A program made the translations under genes and the position numbers. From positions 98,956 to 162,955 of the forward strand of contig NC_057752.1 in NCBI RefSeq assembly GCF_004010195.1: DNA of 64,000 nucleotides, written 5' to 3'. Of the stretch, positions 9,637 through 61,232 are shown piece after piece (position 1 is the stretch's first letter; every line of letters starts with the position of its first letter). The notes beneath the pieces are model-generated. The model was not told where the DNA came from. It was given only the letters and a program-made list of their open reading frames with translations, and searched no databases. The stretch comes from Chiloscyllium plagiosum. Its lineage: Eukaryota.

Positions 9637-9846
9637 CTCCTCCCTGACCTATCACCTTCATCCCCTCCCCCACTCACCCATTGTACTCTATGCTACTTTC
9701 TCCCCACCCCCACCCTCCTCTAGCTTATCTCTCCACGCTTCAGGCTCACTGCCTTTATTCCTGATGAAGGGCTTTTGCCCGAAACGTCGATTTCGAAGCT
9801 CCTTGGATGCTGCCTGAACTGCTGTGCTCTTCCAGCACCACTAATC
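9637..9846 (+). mobile_element. Young PLE terminal-repeat insertion with 13-bp TSD
   Basis: Flanked by CAGAGAACAGACT at 9624-9636 and 9847-9859; contains an intact hammerhead core. Confidence 0.85.
9757..9792 (+). ncRNA. Minimal type-I hammerhead ribozyme motif (PLE family A)
   Basis: ATTC CTGATGA A GGGC-TTTT-GCCC GAAA CG TC GATT: intact core, stem II and palindromic ACGT in place of stem III. Confidence 0.75.
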
Positions 9847-10334
9847 CAGAGAACAGACTGTACTCTACCAGGCCACACTGGCAAAATCCAAAAGACAAAT
9901 TCCTCAATCGGGCAGCATTTGCTGAACAATCCAAATGTATTCTGATAGCTGCATTCACAATCAATTTAAGATAATCAGTTGAGTTCATAATGTGGCTCAT
10001 TTACACTTGCTAGAGGCAAAACACACAGCAAACACTCTACAAACAAAAGGTGTATGGTTAAGCCTTGCACCTTGATTGAATCACCTAAGAGCTTGGGAAG
10101 CCTACAGCTCCTGGTTCCTTTTTCCATGGCAATGACTCATCCAATTAGAATCGATTTGGCAGCCAATCAGCACCATTTCCTCCTTTCATGTGAGTTGTAA
10201 TTGTCTGAAATTTGGCATTCTTGTGCATGTCCTGATGACTGCAAGTTGAAAAGTTTTAATAATGTGTCTCTCTAATCAGCAATATTCAAGTACTGTACTA
10301 CCAAGCGACTGTTATTATGATCTTTGAGTCAGAC

Positions 10335-10454
10335 CTTTCGGTATTTCTTTGGCACCATGTACAGATGAGGCTCTTCCTCCCTTCCAATAGGAGACTCGGG
10401 GATTTGATTGTAGCTGTCAAATTCTGCATCCATCTCCTTCAATTTATATGGAAC
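10335..10454 (-). CDS. PAN2: PAN2 coding exon 8; gene continues beyond the window's left edge
   Basis: VPYKLKEMDAEFDSYNQIPESPIGREEEPHLYMVPKKYRK; acceptor CTGTTTGTAG, donor AAG|GTCTGA; 120 nt. The expected next exon (VTIKYSKLG...) was not seen in 1-10334. Confidence 0.94.
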
Positions 10455-11739
10455 CTACAAACAGGTAACTTACTTCAACAAATAATAAGTCATTCTAAAA
10501 AGCAGTGAACTCCACTAATGGTCTAATGAGTAACAGTGATCCCAGTGTACAACCGAAGCTGGACCACATGGAACAGAATAGATCAACTCCAGCAGCAACT
10601 CCTGGCTGAGCTGAGTTAGCCGAGCTCAGCTTGGACAGCTGTAACGAGAAGCACGACAATTAATATCTACCAAGAAAAGGAAGGATAAAAATTAAAATTA
10701 GGATTAATAATGCAGCGACCTCTGCCACAAAGTATATTGTGCAGAACCAGGCATTGCCATTATGCTTCTGTGGTCAAATAACTTTCCAACCTTCACTGTC
10801 AAGCTGCATCCATGAAGACTGGCCACTTGGGAGCAGTATCAGTGGGTTGCTGGTTCCCACAGAGCCACAAAATTCGAGCTTTCGGAAAATTCACAAAGAG
10901 TGATAAAATTTTAAGTGCTACCTCTAATTTTCAACACCAAGCAGAGTTCTGGATTTTGTTTGCAAATTTAAAAGCTGCACTGTTTTCAACAGCAAACATT
11001 GGTTTTGTTTGTACCAATTAGGATGTGCCATAAGCTTTGCACTTGATTCCCTTTGTGGCAAACTGGTCTATTTCATTCAAATGCACCAGCAAATGTTTAG
11101 GAATTCAAAACAAGTTGAATTGGACTTTCCCCAGTTTCTGCTAGAAGGTTACAAGAGGTTATAGAATGGTATGTTATGAAATGTATAGTGGCACTCAAAC
11201 TCAGAGTAATTGCAGAGTTCCCATCTCAGCCTGACCAGAAGTTTGTGGCTTCCTTGCAGGGAAATTCATAGATTGCTGCCTTTGTTCATCTGTCACAACT
11301 TGTAACTCCATAATATCTTTGACTAGAAGTCCGTGATCAGGTGGTCTGCCCATCAATACAGCTTCTGAACAAAATGGAAAAGATCCAGAAAAGGAGAGAA
11401 AGCATAATTTATTAGGGCAATACTTCTCATACTGTTTTCCAGCATGACCCCAGATGCTGGCAAAAAACAAATTAGCAACAAAGCAGCACATTAACAGTAT
11501 ATAATTAAAATTTGTGTCTTATAAATTAACATAAAAGATGTAATGTATTTTTTTTAAAGTATTTTATTTTAAAAATTATCTTCTCAAGCCCAATGACAAC
11601 ACACAGAGTAACTAGTCTTTTTTACCCCCACAACACACATCACAGGAAGTAGACATTTCCCCCATACATATACAAGCTGTAATCTTTTCAATCACTCACC
11701 ACTCCCCGCATGGTCGCCAGCTAACATTCCCCGACCCTT

Positions 11740-13060
11740 ACCAATTCCTCACTGCACCTGAATGTTAGTCTTCAGTGAATAATTGACAAGAACACCCAAG
11801 TCCCTCTGTATAGCTACACTTGCTAACCTCTCACCACTCAAGAAAAGGTTTACCTTTTCTTTGTACCAAAGTGGATAACCTCTCAAACTATGTTCCTGTC
11901 AAATCAGTAAGCCTGTCCAAATCCTCCAAACACATTACTCACAGCACATGTCCCTACATGGCTGTGTATACTCTGCAAATTTGGAAATATTATATTTGGT
12001 CCTCACATTCAAATCAATGAAAAGAATTGTGAACATCTGGGGCCCAAGCACTGATCCTTGCATTACCCTACTAGTCAATCCTCCAATGTGAAAACAGTCT
12101 GTTTATTGCTACTGTTTTCTGTTTGTTAGCCAATCCTTAATCAGTGTCGGTACATTAGCTTCTGTACCATGTGCTTTAATTTTGTTAACCAACCTCCTAT
12201 TGGGGACTTTATCAAAAGATTTCTGAAAATCCTAGTATGGTAAACTCCCTGATATCAAGCACACGCAGATAACAGAATACCGGATAATGGAGACTTTGCT
12301 CTATACTACATCTATCAACTCCCCTTTATCAATTTTGTTAGTAACAGCCTCATAAAACTCAAAATTTATCAAACACTATTATCCATTCAGAATCCACATT
12401 GGTATCATGATCTGATTGGGCAAAGTGTCCACTTAACATGTCGTTTATGATGGAGTACAGCTTTTCCCTACTACTGATGGTCAATAGTTTCTTGTTTTAT
12501 CCCTTGATCCTTTCTTAAATAATGGGTGACATTTGCAAGCTTTCAGTGTGCAGGAATCATTACAGAATCTCTGGAATTATTTTCTGAAAGTTATCATCAA
12601 TGCATTAATTATCTCTAAAACCCCTTCCTTCAACACTCTGATCAGGTCACAGGAACATAAATTTCTGCCCCATTAATTTCTCCAGGACTACCTTCTTAAC
12701 AATATTAATTTCCATTTAACTCCTCATTCTCCCATTTGACTCTGCAGTCCCCTGAGGAACCGTCACCATCATTTCTTTCTAAAATAGAATACTGACAGAC
12801 AAACAATATTCTCAGGGACACCTGCACAACCTACCTGGTTTTTTAGACTGTCTGTTAATCACCCATTCCTTTTCTGCCTGTACACTTCTATTCTACAGTG
12901 CAAACACGTCCCTACACATGCAATCCATGTGCTCCTCTGAGTGACTTCAACTGCTGCTCAAGTTCCGAAAGCCAGAACTCAAGTTTATGTAGCTGTTAAC
13001 ATTTTCCGAAGATGTATTGTCTGAGACATATGTTCTGTCCATGATGTCACACGCACTGCA
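11740..13060 (-). mobile_element. Highly degraded CR1 fragments
   Basis: Minus-strand remnants of the QGSVLGP and DFQKxFDKVP coding motifs. Confidence 0.6.
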
Positions 13061-13879
13061 GGGTATGTACCCTGCTTGTCCCCATGGACTTGCTATCCTC
13101 TAACTCTGAAAACTGTTGCCCTTAGATTACCTTTAGCCCTTTTGCTCATTTGCAAGCAAATCATGACTCACAGAGCTGTCTGTCCAGAGTCTGTTGTCCA
13201 TCATCACCATTGCTACCTCAGACGAGGGAAAGCATGCATCCCAAAACACTATTTCAGTGACCTCATTGGGGGGTCATGACCCACCATTGAGGACAACCAC
13301 CCGATGAAGGAGCAGCGCTCCGAAAGCTAGTGCTTCCAAATAAACCTGTTGGACTACAACTGGTGTTGCGTGATTTTTAACTTTGTACACCCCAGTCCAA
13401 CACCAACACCTCCAAATTATTTATTTGAAGTTGTTTTCTCGATGAAAATGGAATTTTTTTCTAAAAGTATTTTGAAAAAACTTAGAACTGTTTCAATTGT
13501 TTAAAACAAAACATGTTAATGGTGAAGAATGAGACATCACATTTTGCTACATTCCTGTACATTAATAGGTGTGCTCCATAGTATGAAAAAACATCAGTGC
13601 CACACATGGTACCCCTCTTCAGTAACCATTCTTCTGGTGTAGACCTAAACAGTGAATAACAGCAGATTGTTTCAATCACAAAGGGCATCATAACCAAGCC
13701 CAATATTGTTTCCTGGTCTCCACACATTTCGGTGGCAACTGCTGGATAGCAAACAAGCATGGGAACCATCTATGGTCTTCCCCTCTCTATTGAGGCCAAC
13801 TACAAAGTTTTCATTGCCACTCCAGCTACCTCAGAAAAGACCAGGAAATGAATCAAGTATTTTTTAGTAGGAATATGGC

Positions 13880-16520: not shown

Positions 16521-16757
16521 GCTCACTAACATTGCCTTTACTGAGTGGATCATCAGGGAAGCTGATTAATATTCTTCCCAAAAAGTAGATTTATTTTTTA
16601 AATAAAAGAAGTTCATCTAGCAACATCTTTCCAAATAAAGGTACTAAACAATAATAACTTCCAGCATGATGTGTGTTCCATCCTATACCAAAACATTTAT
16701 TCATTTAAGGTCACAAGTAAACGCACTATTTAATTACAGGTACAGATTTGTTTTTAC

Positions 16758-16854
16758 CTGATTTCTCAGTTTTGTTTTGGGATTCGGCGCATATCCAATA
16801 AACCCAACTTTCTTCATAGTACGCAGTATCTCAAGATCGACAGGTGGAGCTCGT
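16758..16854 (-). CDS. PAN2: PAN2 coding exon 7 (linker region)
   Basis: (R)RAPPVDLEILRTMKKVGFIGYAPNPKTKLRNQ; acceptor TTTTGTTTCAG, donor CAG|GTAAAA; 97 nt. Confidence 0.95.
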
Positions 16855-17649
16855 CTGAAACAAAATAATCACAAGGGTAATTAATCTAAAACAGATTAAA
16901 GGGTCATTTTTAGTTACTGGAGAATTGCAAGACCTCCAAAAGTGAACTATGTCTCTCAAAGAAGATTGAGTACATTGGGACATTCTGTAATACCAGACTA
17001 TTAATATATTTCTGCTTGCTTTATTCTTCTTTCCAGAAATTATATAATCATAAATTGTATATCTACTGTACTGTAGCAATTTCATGTCACAAAGAATATG
17101 CAAATAGTTTAACTTCCCCTATCATTATGCTCATCCAAATGTAAAACATGAACAAGTAACCAGGAAATAATAGGAGTCAAATAAGATGATCTGATACAGC
17201 ATTGGCCACACCGTAAGATTTGAGTGTTGCAAATGGGAAATCCAGGTCTTGTGTGTAACTTTATAATAGCATTCGCATAAACCACAGTAAGACTGCATTA
17301 TCAGAACCAAATCAATTCTAAGATACTTCATTCCCTCACGCAATTCCAACATTCGGTATCAAATTTAAGAAGAGATTGAACATATCTCTTCACGGCCCTG
17401 CACGTTTGGGTACAAACAAGTTTTTCCACTGTGACAGACTACAGCTTCATCCACAATTCTGCAGCTGTATTTCTGATCTAACAGGTCAAGGAGAGGTGAG
17501 GGTAATGTTATCAACTTTTCTTGATCACAAGCAGGGAATTCACAAAAGTGTACTCTCATATTTCCTAATTATGGGTTACATAACAATGGAGACTAAGAGT
17601 AAATTAGTGCCAGGCTGTTCTTTAAGAATAAGGCACATGGTTGAAAATA

Positions 17650-17863
17650 GGAGAAAGTGAGGACTGCAGATGCTGGAGATCAGAGTTGAGAGTGTGGTGC
17701 TGGAAAAGCACAGCAGATCGGGCAGCATCCAAGGAACAGCAGAATCGACATTTTGGGCACAAGCTTCCCGATTTCTGATGAAGGGCTTATGCCCGAAACG
17801 TTGATCCTCCTGCTTCTTAGATGCTGCCTGACCTGCTGTGCTTTTCCAGCACCACACTCTTGA
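17650..17863. mobile_element. Fold-back PLE terminal-repeat insertion with TSD
   Basis: Inverted arms; ATGGTTGAAAATA at 17637-17649 and 17867-17879. Confidence 0.88.
17771..17806 (+). ncRNA. Minimal hammerhead motif (family A)
   Basis: CTGATGA A GGGC-TTAT-GCCC GAAA CG TT GA. Confidence 0.65.
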
Positions 17864-22993: not shown

Positions 22994-23099
22994 CAGCTCA
23001 CGTCTGATTTAGTTCAGCAGAACTTCCTGAACAACTCAATATTCGTAGGTAATCCCCACGCTACTGATTGCCGGATCCAAACTAAAATTTGGACTTAGG

Positions 23100-27085: not shown

Positions 27086-27138
27086 TAGTCTATTGCGACA
27101 AATTATTGTATTAAGTTCAATACATCCAGTATAAATAC

Positions 27139-36000: not shown

Positions 36001-36639
36001 CATAGCTTTAAAAAATTGAACATTTTCAATTATTTTGGAGAAACTGAGTGAAAAAGGCAGTTTATGGAAGTTACTTAGGGTCAAGTATCACGTGGTAGCA
36101 CCACTGATCCAGAATCTGGTTTCCAGCATCTGCAGTCATTGTTTTTATCCAGTACTATATACAGCCAGAGCTCGCAATACTAGGCACAGTTTAGAGGTAC
36201 AATTTTAAAGCAGCTTGGTGTTTTGCAAAGGTGAATTTTAACAAAACAGTATGCATAAATGTGAAGCGGTTACAAATGTAAAAGCAATACACACAGTATG
36301 TCATAAAATCTGGTATTTGACAGATGGATGATTGAAAGGGCTGAAGAAGTCATCCTGGACTCAAAACATTAACTCTGTTTTCTTTCCACAGATGCTGCCA
36401 GATCTGCTGAATTTATCTCGCAATTTCTGTTTTTCGTTTGAATGAAAGGGCAGTTCCATTATTGCATATAGACTATTTCATAACCCTATCCATCTTTCAA
36501 ATGCTGAATCTCATTTTGGACTTGGCTAAAGCAAATGTGTCACAACTTAAAGCTCATAAACGTTTGATTAATTTTATCAGAATTCTTCGAAGAAGTAAAA
36601 AAAAGTGGACAATGGAGACAATGACTTGTTGGCATTGGA

Positions 36640-40084: not shown

Positions 40085-40362
40085 TTTAATTAAACATATC
40101 AATGAACCTAAACCTGCAACCCATTCTAAAAGATGAAAGACTTAACAGCAATCTAGGTTTGTTCAATATATCATATCAGTTGCATGACACTATAACCTTT
40201 TGCTATAAAGTCTGTATCTTATGATCCTGCTCTACAGCTTCCTTATGAGGGAGCAGCACTCCGAAACCTAGTATTTCCAAATAAACCTGTTGGACTATAA
40301 CCTGGTGTTGTGTGATTTTTAACTTCGTCCACTCTCGTCCAACACCGGCACCTCCACATCAT
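40085..40362 (+). mobile_element. PLE terminal repeat (third family), degenerate hammerhead
   Basis: Matches 63890-64000 and 13295-13420; core CTTATGA GGGAGCAGCACTCC GAAACCTA. Confidence 0.75.
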
Positions 40363-41724
40363 TAAAAAGTCTGGTAATTTGCAGGTTGGCATGACTAGAA
40401 AGGTGCCAGGAAAATTTCTTATCCCTTCAAAGAAGAAAACCTGTCAACCTTACGTGGTCCATGCTACTTGGGACGCCAGTCTCACACTACCTGGTTGGCT
40501 CTCAATATGACAGTTTTTTAAATTCACTTATGGGACATAGACATCATTCCTGATTAAGAGCTTTTGCCCAAAACATCGATTTTCCTGCTCCTTGGATGTT
40601 GCCTGACCTGCTGTGCTTTTCCAGCACCACTCAAATATTGACTGTAATCTCCAGCATCTGCAGTACCCGCTTTTGCCATGGACATCACTGTCTGGCCAGC
40701 AGTTTATTGCCTGTCCCTGGTTGCCACTTGAGAAGGTGATGGTGAGCTGCCACCTTGAACCGCTGCAGTCCATCTGCTGTAGGTAGATTCTTAGAAAAGG
40801 AATTCCAGGATTTTGACCAAGTGACACTGAAGGAACGGAAATATATTTCCAAGTCAGGATGGTGAGTGGCTTGGAATTAGAGGAAAGCAATAAATTTGGC
40901 CACACCAGCATCAGTCATGTGCTAAAAACCTTTAAGTGTTACTATTATGGATGAACTTATTATTTTGTTGTACTTTTAGATATTAGTTGATGTGTGAAAT
41001 GCATTACACATGTTAGGTTTCATATCTCCTCCAGAAATCCTGTTTATTAAAAGTAAATAATCCATAAATGGAGACTCACCAATGGGGGATAAAGAGGAAC
41101 TGGCTCATTTGAAGGTAAACCTCCCCTTCCAATGTTGGTGTAAAAAAACTAAAATAAAATAACATTGACTAGAATTAGTTGGATTTCCCATGATTAATTT
41201 AGAATAAAAAGAAAAAATGGCTTTTTACTCCAGGTGTAGCTCCTCTCTGGTTTGATAAGAATGTATACACAAGAAGTCCAAATTCTGTTCCCTTGGTACC
41301 AACTCTCCCCCTCTCCTTGATAACAGTTTGAGAGGAAGTCAAGATGTTCACAGCCTTCATGTCACATTTGACCCCAAGATGAGCTTCCAACTTCATACTC
41401 ACACAGTCACCAAAATTGCCTTTTTCCATCTCTTGACATGCCCAATTTTGCCCCTTTCTCAGCTCTCATGCTGAATCAGTCATCTATGCCTTTCTTATCT
41501 CTAGACTTGACTATTCTAAAGCTCTCTTAGCTGGTCTCCTACATTCTATCCCCCCTTATACCTCAGCTAATCAGAAATTCTATTGCCTATGTCTTAAGTC
41601 ATATTAAATGAGAGGAAAAGAACAATAGAGGAACAGACATGTAGACAATTCATTGAAGTATACAAATAATAATAATAATAGGGTAATTATGGGATCTCAA
41701 CTTCCCAACATTAATTGGAATAGA

Positions 41725-43000
41725 CATAGGGAAGATAGGGGTGAGGGCTGAGGTGCAGGAAATGAGTAGGACCCAGCTGAGGGCGCTATCAATTATGGTT
41801 CTGGGGAATACTTGGTTGAAGAAGAAGGTGGATATTTCAAGGAGAAAGTGAGGACTGCAGATGCTGGAGATCAGAGCTGAAAATGTGTTGCTGGAAAAGC
41901 GCAGCAGGTCAGACAGCATCCAAGGAGCAGGAGAATCGACGTTTCGGGCATAAGCCCTTCTTATTTCAAGGCCCCTTGTCAAAGTTGGCATCATCAAATC
42001 AGGTGCAACAGAGACAGAGGAACTGGAGAATGGTAGCAGGGTGTGAGAATGTATAGTTAAGGTAACTGTGGGTGTGGGTGAGTTTGTAGTGGATGTTGGT
42101 GGCCAGCCTATCCCCAGAAATGGAAATAGAGATGTCAAGGAAAGGAAGGGAGGAGTCAGAGATGAACCAGATGAAGGTGAGAGTGGGGTGGAAATTGGAA
42201 GCAAAATTGTGGAATTTTTCAAATTCTGGATGAGAGAGGAAACAACACCAATGATGTCATTGATGTACCAGAGAAAGAGTTGTGGGTGAGGACTAGAGCA
42301 GGATTAGAATAAGGAATGTTCCACATACCCCACAAAGATACAGGTATATCTGGGGCCCATGTGAGTACCTGTGGCGATCCCTTGGACCTGAAGAAAATGG
42401 GAGCAGTTAAAGGAGAACATGTTCAAAATGAGGACAAGCTCAGTCAGGTGGAGGAGGGTGGTGGTGGACAGGGACAGTTCAGGCCTTTTCTCTAAGAAGA
42501 AGCAGAGAGCCCTGAGACCATGCTGATGAGACCGCGTAAAGTGATTGCACGTCCATAATGAAGAAGATGTGGCAGGACCCTGTGAACTGGGATTTCTGAA
42601 ACTGACAGAAAACATTAGAAGAATTGTGGATGTAATTGGAAAGGGACTGGACAAGCATAGAAAAAAATTGAGTCGAAGTTGGATGAGATGAGTTCTGGGA
42701 GGCAGAAGCAGGCAGAAACGATGGGTCTGTCCAGGCAGTCCTGTAGGTAGAAGAAAGTAGAAGCGGACTTTGCAGGGTTGGGCGAGTATGAGCTTGGAGG
42801 CAGTTAGTAGGGGGAGATCACCAAATGAAATGAAATTAATGACTATTGTGGTCACAATGGTCTTGTGTTCCTTGGTGGGGTCATGGTCCAGGGGGAGATA
42901 TCTGAGAGCTGGCACTCAGTCTCCACAATGGAGAGGTCAGTCTGCCAGACAACAGCCCCACCCTTGTCGACTGGCTTAATTATAAAGTCAGCATTGGATC
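41725..43000 (-). mobile_element. Penelope-like element reverse transcriptase remnant
   Basis: YLPLDHDPT..RFY..LTELVLILNMFSFNCSHFLQVQGIATGTHMGPRY..VEHSLF, then LFLWYINDIIG (YIDD motif), typical of PLE RT. A younger PLE end is nested at ~41840-41965 between ATTTCAAGG repeats. Confidence 0.88.
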
Positions 43001-43212: not shown

Positions 43213-43855
43213 AGCAAAAAAACCAAAGAACTGCAGACACTGGAAACAAAATCAGAAATTGCTGGGAAAACTCAGCTTTTCTGGGCAGCATCAGTGGAGA
43301 GAAAGCAGTTAATGTTTTGGGTCAAGTGACCCTTGTTTAGAATTGATTGTAGCTAGGAAAAGGTTGATATATATATATTAGAAAAGGGATGGGAGAGGGG
43401 GAGCTGAGCCTTGCTAGAGCATTGTAGCAAGCCCAAGACAGAGATGTTGGCCAGGAAACACAGTGGTGGAGCAAGCTTAGCACAAGCTGGAAGAACAACA
43501 CCTCATATTCTGCTTGGGAACTCCGCAAACTTCTGAATTCAATATCAAGTTCAATAATTTTAGGGACTGAGCACCTCCTATCTCCTTACTCCAAACCCCA
43601 TACACCTGGCCCTGTCATCACATGGTTTGCTACCACAAACAACCCATTGTCAGCCCGAACAGTCCCCAGTAGCAGCTATTCATTCTCCCAAGCTCTGTCT
43701 GCCCAACTGTTTTTCTCTCTATTTAGGCCTCATGCCTCCTCTAACCTTTTCCTAGCCACAATCAGTTCTGACAAAGGGTCACTGGACCTGAAACATTTAA
43801 CTTTCTCTTCACAGATACTACCAGACCTGCTGAGTTTTTCCAGCAATTTCTGATG
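43213..43855 (+). mobile_element. Penelope-like 3' fragment with an inverted terminal-repeat copy
   Basis: Plus strand KLEEQHLIFCLGT..FNIKFNNFR (~43485-43565; PLE endonuclease C-terminus) followed by the terminal repeat. An inverted copy of the terminal repeat lies at 43213-43345. Confidence 0.8.
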
Positions 43856-44976
43856 ATGGAATCCAGGGTAATTGGGCAAGTTAGATCCAAAATTGGATTA
43901 GTAGTAGGAGACAGAGGGTGGTGGTCGAAGGCTGTTTATGTGACTGGAGGCCAGTGTCCAGTGGCATACCACAGGGATCAGCATTGGGTCCCTTATTTTT
44001 CGTGATATATATAAACGATAATAGATTAGAATGTGGGGGTGGAGAGAGGATAATTAAGTTTGTAGATGACACACCAATTGGCCAAGTGGTTAATAGTGAG
44101 TAAGAAGGTCTTAGGTATTTAACCCTGAAAACTGTGGAGTGATGCACTTTGGAAGGAGTACAAGACAAGGGAGTACTTATTAAATGGGAGAACACTAGGA
44201 AGCTCAGACAAACATAGGGATTTGGGATGTTTGCCCACAGATCCCTAAAGGCAGCTCGGCAGGAAAATAGGGTAGTTAGGAAGGCATATGTAACATGTGC
44301 CTTTATCAGTCGTTGCACAGATTATAAGAGCAGGGAGGTTATGTTGGAGCAATACAAAACTTTGGTTAGTTCTGGTCGTCTCACTATAGGAAGGATATGA
44401 TTGCACTGAATGGGATGCAGAAGAAATTCACCAGAATGTTACCTGGTGTTGACTGCTTTAGCTATGAAGAGAGACTGCATAAACTCGTTGTTTTCTTCAA
44501 GGGGGAACCTGTCTGAGGTATATAAGACTATGAGGGGCAAGATGGATAGAAAGCAGCTGTTCCCCTTATGGTGAAGGACAGGAGATTTAGAGGGGATTAG
44601 AGAAAATATTTTTTCATTGAGTGGGTTCTGGGAATCTGGAATGCATTGCCTGGGGGGGTTAGTAGAGGCGGAAACTTCACAACCTTTTAAAAGTACTTGG
44701 ATGAGCACTTGAAATGTCAGGACTGGACTGCCCTGAACAAGGGTTACACCCGAAACGTTGACTTCTCCAGCTCCTGATGCTGCCTGGCTTGCTGTGTTCT
44801 TCCAGCTTCCTCCTCGTCTACCTTGGATTCCAGCATCTGCAGTTTTTTTCTCTCTAATTTGAAATGTTGTAACATTTAAGGCAATGGGCCAAGTACTTGA
44901 AAGTTGGATTCGTGTAAATAGGCTTTTATTTGTCGACATAAACTCAATGGGTTGAAGAGCCTCTATTGTATGACTG
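43856..44976 (+). mobile_element. CR1 3' fragment with nested PLE piece (~44720-44857)
   Basis: VVEGCLCDWRPVSSGIPQGSALGPLFFVIYIND..KFVDDT. The nested piece is flanked by TTGAAATGT repeats. Confidence 0.85.
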
Positions 44977-45391: not shown

Positions 45392-45596
45392 TGGAAAAGC
45401 GCAGCAGGTCAGGCAGCATCAAAGGAGCAGGAGAATCGACGTTTTGGGCATAAGCCCTTCTTCCTTCTTCAGGAAGAAGGGCTTATGCCCAAAACGTCGA
45501 TACTCCTGCTCCTTTGATGCTGCCTGACCTGCTGCGCTTTTCCAGCAACACACTTTTCAGCTCTGATCTCCAGCATCTGCAGTCCTCACTTTCTCC
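45392..45596. mobile_element. Fold-back PLE terminal-repeat insertion with 14-bp TSD
   Basis: 74-bp arms 45392-45465 and 45471-45544 (1 mismatch); TSD ATGTTTTATTACAT at 45379-45392 and 45597-45610. Confidence 0.92.
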
Positions 45597-46561
45597 ATGT
45601 TTTATTACATTAAAGGCAGTGTATAAATATAAATATCAATAGCCACTTAAAGGGGCGCTGTAACAGGAACAAACGTCAAAGGAATCTTAAAAAATTAAAG
45701 CATATATTATTGTTGTATATGCCCACTTCTGTAATATGAGTTGTGTATTTCAAGGAAATTACAGGCAGAGAGCAAGGGGAAGAGTATGAATGGCTTTGGA
45801 ATACTTATTTAGAAATACAACTTGAATAAAATAATACCACTACAAAGAAGGTGAAATTCTTCCATCATCTAATTTTCATTAAAAAATGTAAACCTGTTCC
45901 AAACTATCCTACTCAATACTATAGTTACAGTGTGGGGTAAACCAGGAGTTCCAGGGTGCTAAAGCCAGTCAGTAAAGCCTGTAAGTGGGTTTTTTTTATG
46001 ATTCAATGCAAACAGGAGAGGAACTTCAGAAATTTTTAGTGAAGGAAGTTCACTGAGTAATGGGACAAAACTATCATAAAGTCAGTACCTGGAAGGCTGA
46101 AGTATAAACACTCCTGGAATCTCACTTTAACAGGTTATAGCTTCAGGGGCTAGGCTGTTGTCAGAATAAATTCCAATGGAGGAAGTACATCATGCTTTGT
46201 AGAAGAGCATGTAGCACTATGCCAGCCCAGGACAGGTACTCTAAATGAAAAGCAAAGTTGAGAAGCAATTCATGCTTTGACACATGCTTCTTCAAAAAGC
46301 ACTGACATGCAGGCACACGCTAGTATCACAAACCATTGTCCATGCAAACCATCACCTCATCACCCAAAATTTAATTCAAATGTTTGTCACATAGTTAAAG
46401 GGCAAGATTTTCCCTGTTAGACTAGAATCTGTATTCCTATTCCTTCTGATAGGATTAATTAATTACCTCAAAGTAAAGGAACTTCAAAGGGAGTAGCAAC
46501 CGCGAGTGAGTTTTACATCCAATTTGAAAGGGAGAAGAGTAAGTCTAACACTAACATTTTA

Positions 46562-46780
46562 AGAGCTGAAAATGTGTTGCTGGAAAAGCGCAGCAGGTCA
46601 GGCAGCATCCAAGGAGCAGGAGAATTGATGTTTCGGGCATAAGCCCTTCTTCAGCCCTTCTTCGGGCTTATGCCCGAAACGTCGATTCTCCTGCTCCTTG
46701 GATGCTGCCTGACCTGCTGCGCTTTTCCAGCAACACATTTTCAGCTCTGATCTCCAGCATCTGTAGTCCTCACTTTCTCC
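46562..46780. mobile_element. Fold-back PLE terminal-repeat insertion with 15-bp TSD
   Basis: 85-bp arms 46562-46646 and 46664-46748 (2 CpG-type mismatches); TSD CACTAA(C/T)ATTTTAAG at 46549-46563 and 46780-46794. Confidence 0.92.
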
Positions 46781-47176
46781 ACTAATATTTTAAGGGAAAC
46801 TAAGTCAAGGCAACAATGTGGGCATAAAAGCTGATGTGAACTGGGACACTAAGTTAGGAGAAAGCTCAATAAAGAAACGACGGTAAACATTCAAGAGAAT
46901 ATTTCAGGATACTCAGAATAAGTATATTCCTACTATAGAGAAAAGTGCCAAGGGGAGGATCCACCATCTGTGGTTAACTAAAGAAATTAAGGAAATCATC
47001 ACACTTAAGGAAAATGCTTAAAATTGCAACAATGGCATGTCAGATTATAGATCAGTACATAAAGAATGGCAGAGAATTATTAAAACGTTAATCAGGAAAA
47101 AGTAATTACAATATAAGAGGAAAATAGCTAGAAATGTAAAAGATGGGTAACAAGAGCTGATATAGGTATTTAAAAA

Positions 47177-47498: not shown

Positions 47499-48279
47499 TA
47501 AAATGAGAGGTAAAATAACTGTTGGTACTTGAGGTGTTAAAAAATCAATAATAAAGAAATGGTGGATGAAATTAACAAATATTTTGACCTGTCTTCACTA
47601 TAGCAGAAAAAAAACATTCCAGTAATAGCTGTAAATTAGGAGGTGGAAGAAAGAGAGGAACTTGGTGAAATTACAATTACCAAGGGATCAGTACTGAGCA
47701 AACTGATTGAGTAGTGGGATGACAAGTCTCTGGGTCCTGACAGACTTCATCCTAGGATTTTAAAGGGAGCTAGTGAGGTAGTAAATGCAGTTCTAGGGAA
47801 GGGTCACTTGACCTGAAATGTTAACTGCGATTTCTCTCCACAGATGCTGTCAGACCTGCTGAGCTTTTCCAGCAATTTCTATTTTTGTTTCTGATTTACA
47901 GTATCCGCAATTCTTTCATGTTTTATTTAGTAAATGCGTTGGTCTTGATTTTCTAAAGTACCCTAGATTCTGTAAAGCTTCCATCAGACTGGAAAATAGC
48001 ACACATATTCTCTCTATTTAAAAAGGAGGAGGTAGAAAACAGGAAACTATAGGCATTAGCTTGATGTAGGTCATGGAGAAGGTGTTAGGATCTATTGTTA
48101 AGGTTATAACTGGGCACTTAGAAAAATTCAAAGTAAGCAGGAAGAGTCATGTGGTTTTGTGAAAGGGAAATCATGTTTAACCAATTTATTGGAGTTCTCT
48201 GAAGGAGTAACATACACTGTGGATAATAGAAAGCTCATTGATGTGTTGTGCTTGAATTTCCAAAAGGTATTTGATAAGC

Positions 48280-50128: not shown

Positions 50129-50477
50129 TGTTGTGGTTCTGTTCGCCAAGCTGGAAATTTTTGTTGCAAACGTTTCGTCCCCTGTCTAGGTGACATCTTC
50201 AGTGCTTGGGAGCCTCCTGTGAAGCGCTTCTGTGGTGTTTCCTCCGGCATTTATAGTGGCCTGTCCATGCTGCTTCCGGTTGTCCACTATAAATGCCGGA
50301 GGGACAGGCCACTATAAATGCCGGAGGAAACACCACAGAAGCGCTTCACAGGAGGCTCCCAAGCACTGAGGATGTCACCTAGACAGGGGACGAAATGTTT
50401 GCAACAAAAATTTCCAGCTCAGCAAACAGAACCACAACAACGAGCACCCGAGTTACAAATCTTCACCCAAACTTTGG
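50129..50477. mobile_element. Fold-back insertion of a second PLE family with 11-bp TSD
   Basis: 138-bp arms 50129-50266 and 50302-50439; TSD TGACCTATTAT at 50119-50129 and 50478-50488. Confidence 0.9.
50166..50205 (-). ncRNA. Minimal hammerhead motif (family B); mirror copy on + at ~50363-50402
   Basis: Minus strand GCA CTGAAGA T GTCACCT-AGAC-AGGGGAC GAAA CG TT TGC; stem I GCA/TGC. Confidence 0.75.
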
Positions 50478-52605: not shown

Positions 52606-54139
52606 TTTTCCATCATCAAGATTAGGCTTGAATAAGCATTATGGTTATGCAATTAAAATACCTTTCAAAAGAATTTTAAAATTATTTACCCACTTCCCTT
52701 TTAAAAGTTACTATAGATTCTGCTTTCTTCACTGTTTCTGGATGAGCTTCCCACATTCTCAAAATATTAAGCATCAAAAACAAATCCCCTTTCTTCTCCC
52801 TTTTTTTTGCTGACAATCTTTAGCCTATGTTCTCTCATAACTGACTCACCAACCAATGGGGATAATTTGTTTTTCCCATTTACCTTATTAAAGGCCCTTA
52901 CAACTTCGATTGCATATTTGTCATAAACCTTTGAACCTAAGTCTGATGTGATAATTGTTCAAACCCAAAGCAGCAGCAGTCTAAACACAGCCGAGGGTCA
53001 CTTGTAAACCCTTTCCTTCACATATAGGCATTTGGGTGATCTCAGTCAGAATATTCCTACACACAAGGCTCATTTATTAATTGTGTGTACTCTGATACAT
53101 GTAGATTATCAGGGAATTCCACTGTTCAGTAATGCTTCACAATATTTGAAGTAATTAATCACGATTTCTGTTCCTGGTCATTATTTAGCTACCCTGGCTG
53201 TGTGGACCTGATTGGGAGGGTGTGACCTCATGTTCTGACTAGATTATTAGTTCAAGCCTATAATAACAACAAAATATTGCAGATGCTGGAAATCTGAAAT
53301 AACACAGGAAGTGCTGGAGAAATTTAGCAGGTCTGGCAGCATCTGTGGAGAGAGAAACAGAGTTAACATCTGAAGTCCAACATGACTTTTCTTCAGAACT
53401 TCAGCCTACTAGCCCAGTAAGGTAATCACTACATTACCATTCTCGTGACTGAAATTCTAACATAAGTTAAAAGGGGTTTGGAAATGTATTTGTAAAACCA
53501 TATAAATGATGGGGGAATTGGGATCAGAGTAGACAGATTCATCTGAAGAACTAGCACTGGAATAAGTGTGAAGGGGGCAAATTACTTCTCTATAATTCCC
53601 AGCTCCAAATTTCTACCTCCAGTTTAATAGTTTCTCTGCATAACAAAATCAAAGATGAGCATTTCTTCATGTATAATCGAACAAATCAGTCCTAGCTTTT
53701 CCTTTGAGAGAAATTGGTTCAAATCCCACCATGGCAAATGGAGAAATTTGAATTCAATAAAAAATGTGGAACAGAGAGCTGACCTAATGGTGACCATGTA
53801 ACAACTATCAATTGTCATAAAAAAACATCTGGGTCCGCTAATGTCCTATAGGGAAGGAAGTCTGCTGTCCTCACCTGGTCTGACTTACATGTGACTCTAG
53901 ATCCACTGAAATGCAGTTGACTCTTAACTGCCCTGTAGGCAACTCAGAACAGCCGAGCCAACAACATCCAGATGACGTGAATAAATATTTTGAAAAATTA
54001 ACACGTGTGGAAAATTATTCACTACCAGAGATACCAGAAACTTAACTTTCAATCTAGGGTAATAACTTCCCAGATCCCAACTGTTGGTTATGTGACACAA
54101 CCTTCAAATATAAATGTCCACGAGGCTTCATCTGGAGGC

Positions 54140-54179
54140 TCACTGATGATGTTACCTAGTATGGTGATGAAACATCTGA
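54140..54179 (+). ncRNA. Minimal hammerhead motif (family B relative, in PLE fragment ~54050-54256)
   Basis: TCA CTGATGA T GTTACC-TAGTAT-GGTGAT GAAA CA TC TGA; stem I TCA/TGA covaries with GCA/TGC of the 50.2-kb copy. Confidence 0.65.
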
Positions 54180-55654
54180 AAAACAAACCTTCCAGCTCAG
54201 TGAGCAAACCTACATCCAGAACCTCAACCTGAGCTACAAATCTTCTCAAAACTCGCTATGTCCTAATTGGGTTATGCCAAGTTCAATGCCCAGTTAGCAG
54301 CACTGAGTTCTACCTGCAAAGCACTAAGCTTAAAGGGAGACGGCAGCCATGATGATGCCTGCCTGCTGCTATCTTGCAGAGAACAGGAGGCAACACACTG
54401 GAGAGCAAGTAGTTTCACCATACACAAAATTAGCCAAATGGCCAACTGAGCAGCATTGCAAGAAAACAAAATCCCTTATGGTAAAAATGTTTCATCACAA
54501 AAGAAAACTTAATTGGTCCCAACACTGAAACTGACAGCTATACACCAACATGCAATAGACTGTTCAACTTTAGAAAAATATAAGAAAAATATAGACTGTT
54601 CAATTTTACCAATCTGCAATTCAAAAATCATCTTCCAGCCCATTAACAAGCTCACCATGGAGCTTCTATGCCATTAGTTGGAGGCAAGTGCATTCCCAAC
54701 TTCTCCTACCTCCATCATTTTCAAAATTCCAACATGTCCAGAAGTGTTGGAATTTTGCCATGCCATCCAGGTGTGCTTTTCAAAGTGCACTCACATCAAT
54801 CTTACCTGATGGACAATTGAGAATCCTGGCCCAATGCTTTCAATGTGTTAGGGTATCTTCTTGCAAAACTGTGGTATGTGAGGAGCAAACTTGGATTTCC
54901 ATGATAAGTGTAGAAATTTGTGGGATTATCCTGGGCTGTCAAATTGTGACAAATTTCAAATGACGAGAAGCCTGATCCTCAGTTCATAGAGCTGAGCTAA
55001 TTCCTTATATTTTTATCATTTGTTCATGAGATGTGAGCATCATTGGCAAGTTCAGCATTTATTGCACACCACTAATTGCCCTTGAGAAGTTGGCGAGCCC
55101 CTTCTTTAACCACTGGAGTCCGCATGGTGTATGCGGACATTGTGGGTACAGTGTAGCATGGGCTAAAACATCACATTAATTATGTCATTTGGAAAATTGT
55201 GCATTTAGTCTTTACGTCAGAGAAAATAACTTTGTTGAGAGTTTAGTACAAAGGGGAATGAGCTCATTCATCAGCATGGCCTCTTTATCGTATTATTGAA
55301 ATTTATTTCCAGCTAACTCAGTGTTAGCAACCACTTCCCCAAAAACTGGCCATGAATATTTGGTCAGATACAGCCCTTGTCTACTTTCTTATGTCCTTAA
55401 GTGTGTGGGAACCAGGAACCAACATATGCAATTTAAACTTCAATTTTTCTGTGATTAAAGAAAAGTGTGCAGAATCAAGAGGAATTTCCAGCTTATCAGG
55501 AAAATTATATTACTCTCCCCAATTAGCACTATTGGAAAGTGAATTGTATTGACACACATGTCATTTAAGGACAGAACTGAGCTCAGTTGTAGTTAGTTCT
55601 TTGTTTCAGATGAGATATTAAAATAAAGTCCTGTCTTCCCCCCCTCAGGTAATA

Positions 55655-55975
55655 TGGAGGTAGGTGATGGCCTAGTGTTATTATCACAAGCCAATTGATC
55701 CAGAGGCCCAGATAATGTTCTGGGGACCTGGGTTCAAATCCTACCATAGTGGAATTTGAATTCAATAATAATCTGGAAATAAGAGTCTAACGATGACCAT
55801 GAAACCATTGTCAGGAAAAACTCATCTTGTTACTAATGGCCTTTAGGGAAGGAACTCTGCAGGCCTCCATGTGACTCCAGACCCATAGCAACATGGTTGA
55901 CTCTTAACTGCCCTCTGGGCAAATAGAGATGGGCAATAAGTGCTGGTCCAGCCAGAGACATCCACGAATGAATTA
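55655..55975 (+). mobile_element. tRNA-derived SINE of another family (second copy ~53712-53985)
   Basis: TGGCCTAGTG A box, GGTTCAAATCC B box, shared body GGAATTTGAATTCAATAA..CTAATG..TAGGGAAGGAA..GTTGACTCTTAACTGCCCT. Confidence 0.7.
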
Positions 55976-56054
55976 TATTTTTAAAAATTAAGAAAAGCTG
56001 GAAATTTGTCCTCTCCTAAGGCCATACAGAAAGCATGAATACAGAATACAGAAA

Positions 56055-56940
56055 CTTAATAAGCTTGCAAATGACACCAGGATTGGTGGTAAAGTGAACC
56101 ATGAAGAAGGTTATCTACGATTACAAAGAAATCATGATCAATTGGGTCAATGGGCTGAAAAGTGGCAAATGGAGTTTAATTTGGATAAATGCAAGGTATT
56201 GCATTTTGGCAAAACAAACAAAGACAAGACTTCTACAACAAAAAGTAGGCCTTGGGCAGTGTTATAGAACAGAGAGACCTCGGGGTTCAGGTACAGAATT
56301 CTTTGAACTTTGCATCACATATAGATAGGATGGTTAAGAAGGTGTTGAGCATGCTTGCCTTCATTAGTCAGATCTTTGAGTATAAGAGTTGGGACACAAT
56401 GTTGAGGTTATATGGTACATTACTGAGACCGCTTTCAGAGTACTGTGTCCGGTTCTGGTCTTCATGTTATAGGAATGATGTTATTAAGCTGGAGAGGATT
56501 CAGAAGAGATTTACCAGGAATGGGGTGCTTGAGATATAAGGAGAGCCTGGGACTTTATTCACTGTAATGCAGGAGGTTCAAAGGTGATCTTATAGAGGTT
56601 TATAAAATCATAAGGGGTATGGATAAGGTGAGTGGCATGTGTCTTCTCCCTGGAGTGGGGGATTTTAAGACTGGGGGCATATTTTTAAGGTGAGAGGAGA
56701 AAGATTTAAAAAAGACATGGAGGCAATTTTTTTTACACAGAGAGTGGTTTGTGTCTGGAATGAACTTCCAGAGAAATGATGGATGCGGGTACATTTACAA
56801 CATTTGAAAGACATTTGGATAAGTACAGGAATAAGAAATGTTAGGAGGGATATGGGCCAAGTGCAGGCAGGTGGGATTATGGTCGGCATGGACTGGTTGG
56901 ACCAAAGGGTCTGTTCCCATGCTGTGTGACTCTATAACTA
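56055..56940 (+). mobile_element. CR1 3' fragment
   Basis: EQRDLGVQV..LRPLSEYCVRFWS..LERIQKRFTR; tail TGACTCTATAACT. Confidence 0.88.
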
Positions 56941-57679
56941 AATGACTCGATAACTAAATAGTCTCTTTGACTATTACTGCTCCTAGATCTTTAACTCACT
57001 AAAACCTCCTCAAGGGTGCTTCACAATAATGTAATCAGCCAATATTCGACACCAATTAAGCCACATGAGAATATATCATGATAAGTGACCAAAAGCTTGG
57101 TCAAAAACGACATTTTAAGGAGGATCTTGAGGCAAGAGAGAATGGTGTGGAGAGGTTTAAATAGAGAATTTCACAACTTAGGTCCCAGACAGTTGAAGGC
57201 TCAGCCATCAATGTATGGGGCAAGGGTACGGGTGATACACAAGAGGCCATAATTGGGGAACATAGAATTCATGGAATGTTGAATATTTAAAATATATGTA
57301 TCTATGTGTGCTGTTTGAGTATGTTTTTTTACCAGTCACACTGTAATCTACAAGATATTAGATCTCTATGGGCCAACCAGATGAGGCAACATTTGGTATG
57401 ACAATCAGAGAAACGATCTTACAATACATTGTAAATCTGAGTTAAACAAACTTAAAGGAAATTATCTGTTCTACCTAGAAGTTGTCAGATTACTAAGTTT
57501 AATTTTCAGAAGTTATACATAACAGATAATGTCCTGAAACATGTTACTCATGTTTTGTGGGTTGTCCAGAAAAGATATTGAACATCGATAGAAGAAGCAA
57601 GATAATACCACTCCTTTCTCTCGCTTACTAAATTTTCTCTGTTTCACATCACAGTCAGATGGCTTAAGCAGGACAGCAG

Positions 57680-57982
57680 GGCTGCACAGTGGCACAGTGG
57701 TTAGCACTGCTGCCTCACAGTACCAGGGACCCGGATTCCATTCAAGCCTTGGGTGATTGTCTCTGTGGAGTTTGCACATTCTCCCGTGTCTGCGTGGGTT
57801 TCCTCTGGGTGCTCCAGATATGTCCCACAGTCCAAAGATGTACAAGTTAGGGTAATTGCCATGCCAAACGTTGCCTTTTAGTGTCCAGTTTATGTGGGTT
57901 AGCCATGGTAGGTCTGGGTGGATACCCTTCAGAGGGTCAATGCAACCTCAATGGGCTCTTTCTGTACTGTAGGGATTCTATA
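57680..57982 (+). mobile_element. HE1-type V-SINE (older)
   Basis: tRNA-like head, V-domain, GGGATTCTAT tail. Confidence 0.85.
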
Positions 57983-60900
57983 AGCAATGGAACATAAGTG
58001 GAGAGCATTGAAGAGAGAAAATAAAGGTATTGAGAGAGAAAACTAAGAGAGGAAGAAAAAAGAGCTTCAAACAAGAGATAATAAGAATAAAAAACAGAAT
58101 TAATGAAAAGCACAAAAGAGAACGGAAGATCGTTAGAAAACCTTTTATCTTAATTCACTGGCAAAATGGAGATTAAAATGATGAGTATGAGCTAATACAT
58201 GTTTATGACTGAGGGGCATGAGTAGTGTCAAGTTCTGACCCGGTGACACTAGATTAATCAATATCACCCTTCTTGATCTAATTGAAGTAAGTGTGGACAA
58301 TTGCCAAGGAAGTTTGCGTTTGAGTTAAGCTTCATTAACTGCTGCTAACAATGTAAAAATGTCAATGTTTGTATCTTAAATAACTGATTTACCTAATCAT
58401 TGCTCATTCACATGCATATTTTGGTTTCAGATTTTAGCCTTAAATTTCTATCTCCTTTTTTCTTGTTCACAATTTTTGAACCATTCACTCCTTTCTCCTT
58501 CCCTTCCTGTTGCCCAGTTGTGACATCTTTCACTTCTCCCCTCTTCAGTCCCTTTAACTTCCAACCACACAGTCTGTCCCCAAAACTCCTCCTGACAAAC
58601 CCTACCTCATCACTACTCTTCAGCCATCCTATTCTCCTGCCACTTTCAAACATGACTTCCTCTTGGATAAACCCACAGTTCCTATTGTTACTCTCTTAAC
58701 ACTTGCGGAAGGGTCTATCAGTTGTCATCAATTCCTTTTTATGAGCAGCAATTCAAACTGTCCATTCCTCCTTTCTTGCTGACCTGTCCGCTTAGCATAT
58801 CTATTTAAAGGGGCAAAGTTAAAAATCCCACAACACCAGGCTATAGTCCAACAGGTTTATTTGGGAGTACTAGCTTTCAGAGGGCTGCTTCTTCATCAGG
58901 TAGCTTTGGAAGAGGATCATAAGACACAGAATTTAAAGCAAGTCAAAACAATGGCACTTTTAAAAGGGAGAAAAACAGACAAAAGGCAGTGAGAACATGG
59001 TCAATGAGGGTGAGTTAAAAAGAAACCAACACTGCTAACTGACACAGCAGTGAATCTGCACAGTTACTGCCTTTGTGTTTGAGTTCATATATTGCTGGAC
59101 GTCAGAATGCATCAAGGAAAAATTAACAAGCAGCGAAATTCACAGCTGACCTTGAAGGAACCTGTGTGGAAGAGCTCACAGCACAGGAACAAATAAGTAC
59201 ATAGCTTTTAATGTGTAACCTGGCTGTAAGTCTGCAGTAGTGAGTAGAGTGGGTTCTTTCTTGATTACGTGTTTTATTGAAATCTGTCTCTTGATTAAAT
59301 TTAAAAAATATAAACCATAAGTACTAAGTTAGCCTGGAGCACTGTTTTTTAGAGCAAAAAGACAGTGCTATTTTCTGGGTCTGTAGATTGGAAAGGATCA
59401 AAGATGGCCTTTAGTAACGTGATATGATCTTCTTGTCGGATGTGGGAGTTTAGGGAGAGTTTTCATGTTACTGATGATTATGTCTGCAGGAGGTGTCTTT
59501 GGTTGCGAGTCCTATCAGATCGCATGGATTGGTTGGAGCGACAGTTAGAAGAAATAAGGAGTTTACAAGAGCTAGGAGATGTGATAGATGGCAGTTATAG
59601 GAAGGGCAAAAAGCCACAGATACAGTGAGATAGATGGGTTATCTCTAGGAAAGGTAGGAAGGGTAGGCAGGTAGTGCAGGAGTTTTCTGTGTCTATTCCC
59701 ATTTCAAACAAGTATGCTGTTTTGGAAAATGGAGGGGGTTGATGGACTCTCAGAGGAATGTAGCACAATAATCCAAGTTTCTGGTATCGAGACTGGCTCT
59801 AATGTAATGAAGGGTACATTGGGATCCAAGCGATTGATTGTGATAGGGGACTCTCTAGTCAGAGGCACGGACAGACATTTCTGCAGCTAGCAGCGAAAAA
59901 TCAGAATGGTGTGTTGCCTCCCTGGTGCCAGGATCTAGGATGTCTCAGAGAGGGTGCAGAATGTTGTCAAAGGGGAGAGGACCAGCAGGAGGTCATTGTA
60001 CACATTAGAACCAACGACATAGGAAGGGAAAAGGATGAGATTCTGAAGGGAGAATATAGAAGGTTAGGCAGGAATTTAAAAAAGAGGTCCTTGGGGGTAG
60101 TAATATCTGGATTACTCTCAGTGCTACAAGTTAGTGAGGGTAGGAATAGGAGGATCTAGCAAATGAATGCGTGGCTGAGGAGCTGGTGCCGGGAGAAGGT
60201 TTCACATTTTTGGATCATTGGAATCTATTCTGGGGTAGAAGTGTCCTGTACAAGAAGGACGGATTGCACCTGAATTGGAAGGGGACTAATATACTAGCAG
60301 GGAGATTTGCTAGAGCTACTCGGAGGATTTAAACTAGTAAGGGGGGGGCGGGGGGGAGGAACCCAGGGAGATAGTGAGGAAAGAGGTCAATCTGAGACTG
60401 GTACAGGTGGGAAAGGGAATGAGTCAAACAGGGCAGGAAGGAACAAAGCAGAGAACAAGGTAGGACTGATAAATTAAACTGCACTTACTTCAATGCAAGA
60501 GGCCGAACAGCGAAGGCAGATGAACTCAGGGTATGGTTAGGAACATGGGGCTGGGATATCATAGCAATTACAGAAACATGGCTCAGGGATGGACAGAACT
60601 GGGAGCTTAATGTTCTCGGATAAAAATGCTATAGGAAGGATAGAAAGGGTGGCAAGAGAGGAGGGGGAGTGACGTTTTTGATAAGGGATAGCATTACTGC
60701 TGTACTTAGGGAGGATATTCCTGGGAATATATCCAGGGAAGTTATTTGAGTGGAACTGAGAAGTAAGAAAGGCCTTATTAGGATTGTATTCCTAATAGCA
60801 GGAAATTGAGAAACAAATTTGTAAGGAGATCTCAGTTATCTGTAAGAATATTAGGGTGATAATGGTCGGGGATCTTAACTTTCCAAACATAGACTGGGAC

Positions 60901-61114
60901 TGCCATAGTGTTAAGGGTTTAGATGGAGAGGAATTTGTTAAGTATGTACAAGAAAATTTTCTGATTCAGTATGTGAATGTACCTATGAGAGAAGGTGCAA
61001 AACTTGACCTACTCTTGGGAAATAAGGCAGGGCAGGTGACTGAGGTGTCAGTGGGGGAGCACTTTGGGGCCAGCAACCATAATTCTATTAGTTTTAAAAT
61101 AGTGATGAACAGGG

Positions 61115-61232
61115 TTAAAAATCACACAACACCAGGTTATAGTCCAACAGGTTTAATTGGAAGCACTAGCTTTCGGAGCGATGCTCCTTCATCAGGTGAT
61201 TGTGACAGTCCAACACCGGCATCTCCAAATCA
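61115..61232 (-). mobile_element. Third PLE-family short insertion with internal inversion, inside CR1 ORF2
   Basis: TSD TGATG(A/G)ACAGGG at 61103-61114 and 61233-61244; same family as 13295-13420, 40085-40362 and 58817-58941. Confidence 0.85.
61164..61198 (-). ncRNA. Minimal hammerhead motif (family C), intact
   Basis: Minus strand CAC CTGATGA A GGAGC-ATC-GCTCC GAAA GC TA GTG; stem I CAC/GTG, palindromic AGCT. Decayed copies at 13298-13332 (+), ~40238-40272 (+) and 58868-58902 (-). Confidence 0.75.

Follow-up and report, generated by a model that had tools for sequence, protein, structure and literature searches.

Hammerhead motifs in the terminal repeats of Penelope-like families of a shark: abundant, mostly decaying stubs whose starts cluster at the 5' edge of the ribozyme

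We analysed a stretch of 64,000 nucleotides (the window; positions 98,956-162,955 of contig NC_057752.1) from the 3.56-Gb genome assembly of the shark Chiloscyllium plagiosum, in which a preliminary description had noted dispersed minimal hammerhead ribozymes. We consider it probable that minimal type I hammerheads lie in the end repeats of at least three families of Penelope-like elements (PLEs), that most copies are short, decaying stubs, and that these arose when the element's reverse transcriptase initiated internally on an RNA with a capped, uncut 5' end and read through to that end. The scattered motifs of the window are real copies of the hammerhead motif known from PLEs, and the stubs that carry them are the ends, or pseudo-long terminal repeats (pLTRs), of at least three PLE families. 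Minimal hammerheads in the pLTRs of metazoan PLEs were published by Cervera and De la Pena in 2014 (PMC4209133; all papers are cited here from excerpts), so that motif and host elements, as well as the scattering of copies on opposite strands, were already known. New here are the finding that stubs start at the 5' edge of the ribozyme rather than at its cut site, and the untemplated G that precedes the start in two families.

Positions are numbered with C3 of the core as +1, the predicted cut of family A falling after +28, and a core is called intact when it reads CTGANGA..GAAA-NN-TH. A scan of the window for CTGANGA..GAAA gave 21 raw matches. A descriptor search for minimal hammerheads (exact core, stem II of at least 4 bp and GAAA..TH), which the preliminary description had proposed as a check, found seven motifs against a mean of 0.15 and a maximum of one in 40 Markov simulations. 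All the motifs that it had located are present, as are the stem II and stem I pairs that it quoted. It had claimed more than 15 copies; we count 27 hammerhead-bearing stubs, nine with intact cores (9079-, 9761+, 17775+, 46654-, 50202-, 50366+, 54143+, 58899- and 61195-) and 18 whose core is broken or partly missing. Self-BLAST separates six families among the window copies (A, B, B2, C, D and E), with an extra decayed family at 10232; the copies at 54143 and 44733 form families of their own, B2 and E. Many of the copies are inverted pairs, with arms diverging from the motif. The second proposed check, a run of the Rfam covariance models on the window, returned 10 matches at E up to 10, none of them to a hammerhead family. 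No tandem arrays of hammerhead units were found in the window, and a retrozyme reading, in which tandem units each carry a hammerhead, was rejected for this reason; elsewhere, same-strand neighbours do occur but are rare.

The motif is present in very large number across the genome, as had been predicted from the window. In an unbiased sample of seven 200-kb blocks (1,344,270 non-N bases) the descriptor search found 91 motifs in 1.344 Mb (68/Mb; 40-94/Mb by block) and none in the reversed sequence; in the first four blocks Markov controls gave 0-4 motifs against 51 observed. Scaled to the genome, this corresponds to about 2.4x10^5 motifs. That is an upper figure, since gaps count towards the assembly size and 32 of the 91 motifs have lost the palindrome discussed below; the number used in what follows is some 2x10^5. 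Exact genome-wide matches to 28-31-letter patterns number 48,023 for the family A core, 8,859 for the B core, 2,481 for the C core and 35,759 for the 3' part of C, with no matches to the reversed patterns. The motif system itself has been published (PMC4209133). Because Rfam misses the motif, its number matters for the annotation of shark repeats.

Pairing covaries between families. Across 18 copies from seven families, which were chosen by motif and are therefore not fully independent, the covariation score is 0.533, compared with 0.236 +/- 0.038 in shuffles (none of 500 as high) and 0.07-0.28 (at most 0.278) in slid controls; in this set stem II is 89% paired and stem I 57%. The core, the unpaired base after A9, the pair G10.1-C11.1 and the palindromic 15.2-16.2 are those of the minimal hammerheads of PMC4209133, and the last three are traits which, according to that paper, emerge without being part of its own descriptor. 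Among the 91 sampled motifs the pair that follows the unpaired base is G-C in 61, G-U (CpG decay) in 29 and A-U in one. The palindrome that replaces stem III, recognized in the preliminary description, is kept as CG, GC or TA in 59 motifs, appears in the CpG-decayed forms TG or CA in 29 and is something else in three. In family A, the most numerous, stem I (ATTC/GATT) is weak, 93 of 125 copies having a U-U mismatch, a point that had gone unmentioned. The stem I pairing TAC/GTA, offered earlier as an example of covariation, does occur in the sequence, but it is weak as such because it is rare in family C, where the pair at that position is TA in 2, TG in 8 and CG in 39 of 56 copies.

Within family A the core decays like neutral DNA. 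All 11 core bases are kept in 64 of 125 copies; the catalytic G12, which belongs to a CpG, is mutated in 35 of 125, while other CpG sites are mutated in 16-30%; divergence is 4.2% at non-CpG core bases and 6.1% in the flanks; and changes in stem II are mostly single transitions. For this reason the copies are to be seen as mostly dead and not as a host ribozyme population: it was the master elements that were under selection, and not the copies they left behind. Energy minimization of monomer and homodimer structures, a prediction only, gave inactive alternatives and did not produce the active dimer. In family A copies with CTGATGA, such as that at 9757-9794, the predicted monomer fold pairs the core with bases of the cut site, an inactive form.

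That the carriers are PLEs is best seen in a non-circular test. A search with a reverse transcriptase (RT) protein alone led to 12 loci, 11 besides the query, and all 12 have a family A hammerhead downstream on the same strand. In one long copy (L132), which ends in a family A hammerhead, the domains RVT_1 (E 2e-7) and GIY-YIG (E 6e-5) both score above the Pfam cut-offs. GIY-YIG frames also lie upstream of other long copies, with a cysteine linker in families A and C and none in B and B2. The linker before the endonuclease is CX4CxxC or CX3CCxxY, seen in two family A loci (L081 and L301) and in decayed form in one of family C (L034); translations of two family B loci (L066 and L086) show a C-terminal GIY-YIG domain without it, a Pfam search of the L066 piece giving no match. 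According to PMC8557442, a CX2-5CxxC linker between RT and C-terminal GIY-YIG characterizes Neptune, whereas Penelope/Poseidon elements are without it; by this rule, families A and C would be Neptune-type and B and B2 Poseidon-type. The RT-found loci and the upstream endonuclease frames thus bear out the earlier assignment of the motifs, as minimal type I hammerheads, to terminal repeats of PLEs of several families.

The copies also carry the insertion marks of endonuclease-bearing PLEs, namely 5' truncation, an inverted 5' copy, a 30-40-bp tail and target duplication (PMC8557442, PMC3846280, PMC2377424). Their 3' ends are bimodal, at about +86..97 and +124..133, and the two ends, some 35 nt apart, define the tail. 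An inverted partner accompanies 84 of 207 family A and 24 of 57 family C copies, and target duplications of 7-14 bp are seen in most window cases. Same-strand copies 2-4 kb apart were considered as the ends of one element and rejected as independent insertions. The longest 'open frames' of the RT loci are mostly assembly gaps, the best being a 726-aa open stretch from RT to endonuclease (L301).

Two remnants in the window had been cited in support of the assignment to PLEs, and each needs some correction. The RT remnant at 42.3-42.9 kb is real: the region 42.0-43.0 kb has 53-59% identity to Neptune-type RT (E 2e-35), and the old remnant as a whole covers 41692-42968 (-). However, the family A stub that it holds, at 41840-41960 (start +4), is a later insertion with a 10-bp duplication. 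Similarly, the supposed GIY-YIG remnant at 9.5 kb is PLE-like and part of an older element (family H, 9490-10270, +) with its own decayed hammerhead at 10232, but it is split by a family A copy with an upstream pLTR (9636-9850, +; intact core 9761, predicted cut after 9788) that was inserted into it with a 13-bp target duplication. Our own endonuclease queries found no match in the 9.5-kb remnant, whose GIY-YIG identity is putative and based on a sequence motif.

The positions at which stubs begin were determined with copies anchored on their 3' part, no core being required; 204 of 207 copies could be placed for family A, 27 of 28 for B and 57 for C. References holding an inverted arm, which would give a false peak at -81, were left out, and family D, having no long references, was judged by eye only. 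In family A, 129 of the 204 starts fall in -13..+18 and 61 of them in -5..+1, a rate of 6.5% per nt in the latter interval compared with 0.7-0.9% upstream and 0.2-0.35% downstream (Poisson P 3e-34). Family C has 27 of 57 starts in -13..+18, nine at -11..-7. A missed subfamily was considered as the source of the family A peak and rejected, since the flanks are unrelated or inverted arms: the flank pyrimidine fraction of the 67 non-inverted cases is 0.48, against 0.73 for true upstream sequence, and nine of 11 shared flanks are missed inverted arms.

The base before the start is informative too. Genome-wide, a start at A(-3) preceded by a non-template base is seen in 4,121 A2 copies; among the first 100 matches this base is G in 64, A in 29 and T in 7; where the flanks are unrelated it is G in 22 of 36, the background being 0.30. 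At a control start, -1, G precedes only 22 of 100 (Fisher P 3e-9 versus A(-3)); the control pattern has one more constraint, and its total of 390 is not directly comparable with 4,121. For the family C start at A(-7), G precedes 73 of the first 100 of 266 matches (P 7e-19), and 58 of 85 once 15 in which an inverted arm could supply the G are dropped. The window has an example of its own, the family C stub at 13292-13418 (+), which starts at A(-7) after an extra G (core at 13301, U4>C; full tail). Other partner-arm starts (+5, +57 and about +95-112) account for 1-5 per 100 each, the +29/30 class lying outside this comparison. At full-length LINE-1 junctions an extra G marks the cap (PMC11702581). 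Upstream, long family C copies have TATAAA 32 nt before A(-7), one family D copy has TATAAAA about 33 nt before A(-3), and TTTATC stands at about -35 in most long family A copies and in family E. A rotifer pLTR is described as having a putative TATA box plus initiator in passages of PMC8557442, PMC3846280 and PMC2377424.

On the whole we favour, though with less assurance than the general conclusion above, the following account. RNAs of the Neptune-type elements would be capped 3-7 bases before the core, making the ribozyme their 5'-terminal structure, and the uncut capped RNA would be the template; priming in the leader would yield the ~10^5 stubs and the inverted pairs, cutting serving only to remove the leader. 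Transcription would start at the 5' edge of the ribozyme from a box supplied by the upstream repeat, A(-3) or A(-7) being the probable transcription start and the extra G a copied cap. The element's protein may then prime internally, at +90 or +125 of the upstream repeat, as the anole element does in vitro. Priming there would run off the cap after 95-130 nt, leaving a stub with the ribozyme and without the promoter box; a dimeric protein priming on both target strands could join two such events head to head, giving the inverted pairs; and priming in the downstream repeat would give longer, randomly truncated copies. The putative cleavage may take place only in tandem transcripts, as a dimer through the ACGT/AGCT palindrome, or with the help of the element's protein, and cut RNA, if produced, would rarely be a template. 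For the anole element, internal priming, extension on both target strands and uncut RNA as the main substrate have been reported in vitro (PMC11167929). Dimer cleavage of hammerheads is reported by Lunse et al. (via the review PMC6765202). If the account is true, cutting removes only a capped leader of 31-35 nt, which would make the ribozyme a candidate switch for decapping or turning off, not a unit-length processor, and the start sites of every family would be preserved in the genome as a fossil map.

Several observations weigh against it. Family B has nine of 27 starts in -13..+18 with no sharp peak, and its TATA box is at -52. The TTTATC of family A is not a consensus TATA box, and Drosophila Penelope has a TATA-less internal promoter (PMC2377424). 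A stall of the enzyme would likewise account for the 51 of 204 family A ends that fall within the ribozyme, at +2..+18. The tallies of G are hand counts over the first 100 matches in each case. No intact repeat-open reading frame-repeat element was seen among 12 candidate pairs, the 12 RT loci and three long frames, where assembly gaps interfere. Finally, a polyA single-cell RNA run, possibly from a different species, covers both strands, with 89-94% of reads running on into unrelated sequence, and revealed no pile of RNA starts or ends; this neither shows nor excludes an RNA start.

Some of these points would suit an RT that is halted by the ribozyme, folded or bound by protein, and appends an untemplated base, with no RNA start at the site. 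The ends do range from -13 to +18, covering the 5' half of the ribozyme, and the anole ribozyme needs the element's protein to fold (PMC11167929). Stalling nevertheless seems to us unlikely: the extra G is specific to A(-3) and not to -1, the G-marked start of family C is 5 nt outside stem I and keeps a spacing of 30-32 nt to TATAAA, and the 3' edge of the ribozyme, the first place at which stalling would be expected, has few ends (7 of 193 in +19..+32). Even less credible is in vivo cleavage of the element's RNA by the ribozyme with the cleaved RNA regularly serving as template, in which case the resulting copies would start at the cut site (+29). Genome-wide patterns do match 193 copies starting at +29 compared with 53 at +31, and of 30 inspected +29 loci two are full, clean fold-backs and 28 have CAG before the G, a possible snap-back of complementary DNA (cDNA) ending at +29. 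However, in 18 of the 30 the junction is with an inverted arm that ends at 0/-1 and overlaps by GA (one reads CAA), the rest being mostly short fold-back-like or other junctions. The excess is no proof, because junction letters fixed by the element pass a three-letter filter every time; about 20 of the first 100 matches at +29 are other junctions, which scales to some 40, not above the 53 at +31. In the unbiased sample, moreover, there are four ends at +27..+32 where the local rate predicts 3.8 (P 0.52), so that the cut site is not enriched, and the polyA single-cell run shows no RNA starts at +29. A small class of copies from cut RNA is possible. At L241-L270, the family A segment +30..+38 shows short extensions that fold back around a TTC loop (GAA on the cDNA) immediately behind the cut site; self-priming of the cDNA through a mini-hairpin may explain them.

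The window also bears on a role in the host. The first eight coding exons of PAN2, corresponding to aa 1-507 of the ray homologue, occupy 33174 to 10323 on the minus strand, the gene continuing left of the window. Introns of the coding region therefore hold nine of the 27 stubs, three of them sense to the gene; the preliminary description had rightly put some copies there. Together with the ~2x10^5 motif-intact copies and the presence of stubs in polyA RNA, this might suggest a working population of host ribozymes affecting transcripts such as PAN2, as had been implied, but we regard that as barely conceivable. Two thirds of the window copies are broken, G12 is lost in family A much as other CpG sites are, and only about half of the family A copies keep the entire core, with stem II changing by single transitions. 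The only intact copy sense to PAN2, 9079 (-), sits inside an inverted pair of 79% identity (family A, 9000-9215, both strands; broken core 9094, +). Single minimal motifs are reported to have shown no cleavage in vitro (PMC4209133), and the copies, being dispersed, have no same-strand partner for cleavage as a dimer. Nothing suggests a host role. The decayed family H hammerhead at 10232 lies 91 nt from a PAN2 exon.

Compared with what excerpts of PMC4209133 report, the shark resembles other animals in having several covarying families per genome, mostly as single truncated copies, and opposite-strand pairs 100-700 bp apart. It differs in number, ~4,000 motifs in the coelacanth and ~9,000 in Xenopus being given there against ~2x10^5 here, obtained with a different descriptor of our own, and in the shorter stem II (4 bp) and mismatched stem I of family A. 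The excerpted text and supplement file 2 of that paper include no shark and no analysis of where truncated copies start. Family B is much like PAc, the Poseidon element of Anolis carolinensis (Frangieh et al. 2024, PMC11167929): its stem II begins with an ATG, the cut site follows 28 nt later (26 in PAc), and its 3' ends are AC-rich. The two 3' ends that define a tail and the lack of RNA ends at the cut site are shared with PAc as well. Families A and C differ from it in being apparently Neptune-type, with a stop a few codons after the core. That work, in the parts excerpted, maps where reverse transcription starts, not where it ends, and gives no capped start. The papers on endonuclease-bearing PLEs (PMC8557442, PMC3846280, PMC2377424) attribute inverted junctions to self-priming on an antisense template or offer no explanation for them, whereas in the shark the two arms mostly share a single G-marked end position. 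Non-LTR retrozymes (bioRxiv 10.64898/2026.07.22.740005) likewise have type I hammerheads from PLE pLTRs and are present in one chondrichthyan genome, but they are defined by tandem arrays. A literature search that covered subscription journals thinly turned up no account of PLE hammerheads in sharks or of PLE stubs with a capped start; supplements of the 2026 preprint may list these families.

The role of hammerheads in endonuclease-bearing PLEs has been called unclear (PMC8557442), and in one in vitro system cleavage was dispensable (PMC11167929). Our junction statistics agree in vivo with dispensable cleavage and place the probable RNA start at the edge of the ribozyme, which gives exact 5'-end coordinates together with a simple account of short and inverted copies. 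The findings do not point to a host regulatory system.

The remaining window copies, located by self-BLAST and census, are as follows. Family A has a stub at 54-239 (+), with a 3-nt deletion in the core, and another at 40546-40678 (+; start -4, broken core, 7-bp duplication). Its inverted pairs occupy both strands at 17648-17862 (intact core 17775, +; 13-bp target duplication), 45392-45597 (both arms beginning inside the core; 14-bp duplication) and 46562-46781 (intact core 46654, -, without the 5' arm of stem I; 8-bp duplication). Family B, Poseidon-type by the linker rule, is represented by the inverted pair at 50129-50476 (both strands; intact cores 50202, -, and 50366, +; 11-bp duplication), and B2 by the stub at 54100-54256 (+) with intact core 54143. 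A palindrome at -32..-17, upstream of the family B core, is a frequent centre of inverted pairs. Family C copies lie at 40094-40363 (+; TATAAA box upstream, core G5>T), at 58814-58941 (-; core 58899 intact, stem II disrupted) and at 61114-61233 (-; start -8, intact core 61195). The last of these is adjoined by an opposite-strand arm at 61206-61233 that consists of the 28-nt tail alone, and the upstream part of yet another family C copy leaves the end of the window at 63891-64000 (+). The family E stub at 44732-44857 (+) has GGGT/ACCC in stem II and a core with G8>C.

Family D comprises stubs at 36340-36440 (+; beginning at the core, G12 lost, 9-bp duplication), 47790-47932 (+; broken core, 10-bp duplication) and 53262-53402 (-; broken core). 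A composite on both strands at 43216-43854 contains an inverted arm (43216-43365, -), an endonuclease C-terminus (about 43470-43565, +) and a broken core at 43768. The family also has an inverted pair at 6486-6724 (both strands; core at 6621, -, G12 lost), which sits inside a further 80-bp inverted repeat of non-PLE sequence at 6407-6803; the hairpin there produces a spurious MIR7723 match below the gathering score.

Further families were met outside the window. Relatives of family H occur in L044, L106, L203 and L204. In family G, at L098:8819 (+), stem II is 6 bp long and a TATAA box lies upstream at a distance of about 34 nt. A D-related family in L151, L179 and L112 has TTGACAA in place of CTGANGA in more than one copy, perhaps a variant of the core or a family that has lost catalysis.

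Much of the window is occupied by CR1-like remnants of long interspersed elements (LINEs) and by copies of short interspersed elements, which we take to be tRNA-like. The CR1-like remnants include one at 61661-63244 (+), with a 357-aa RT frame (Pfam RVT_1), and many shorter pieces. Weak U6 matches at 8408-8516 and 62926-63034, far below the gathering score, fall within LINE remnants and are probably due to chance.

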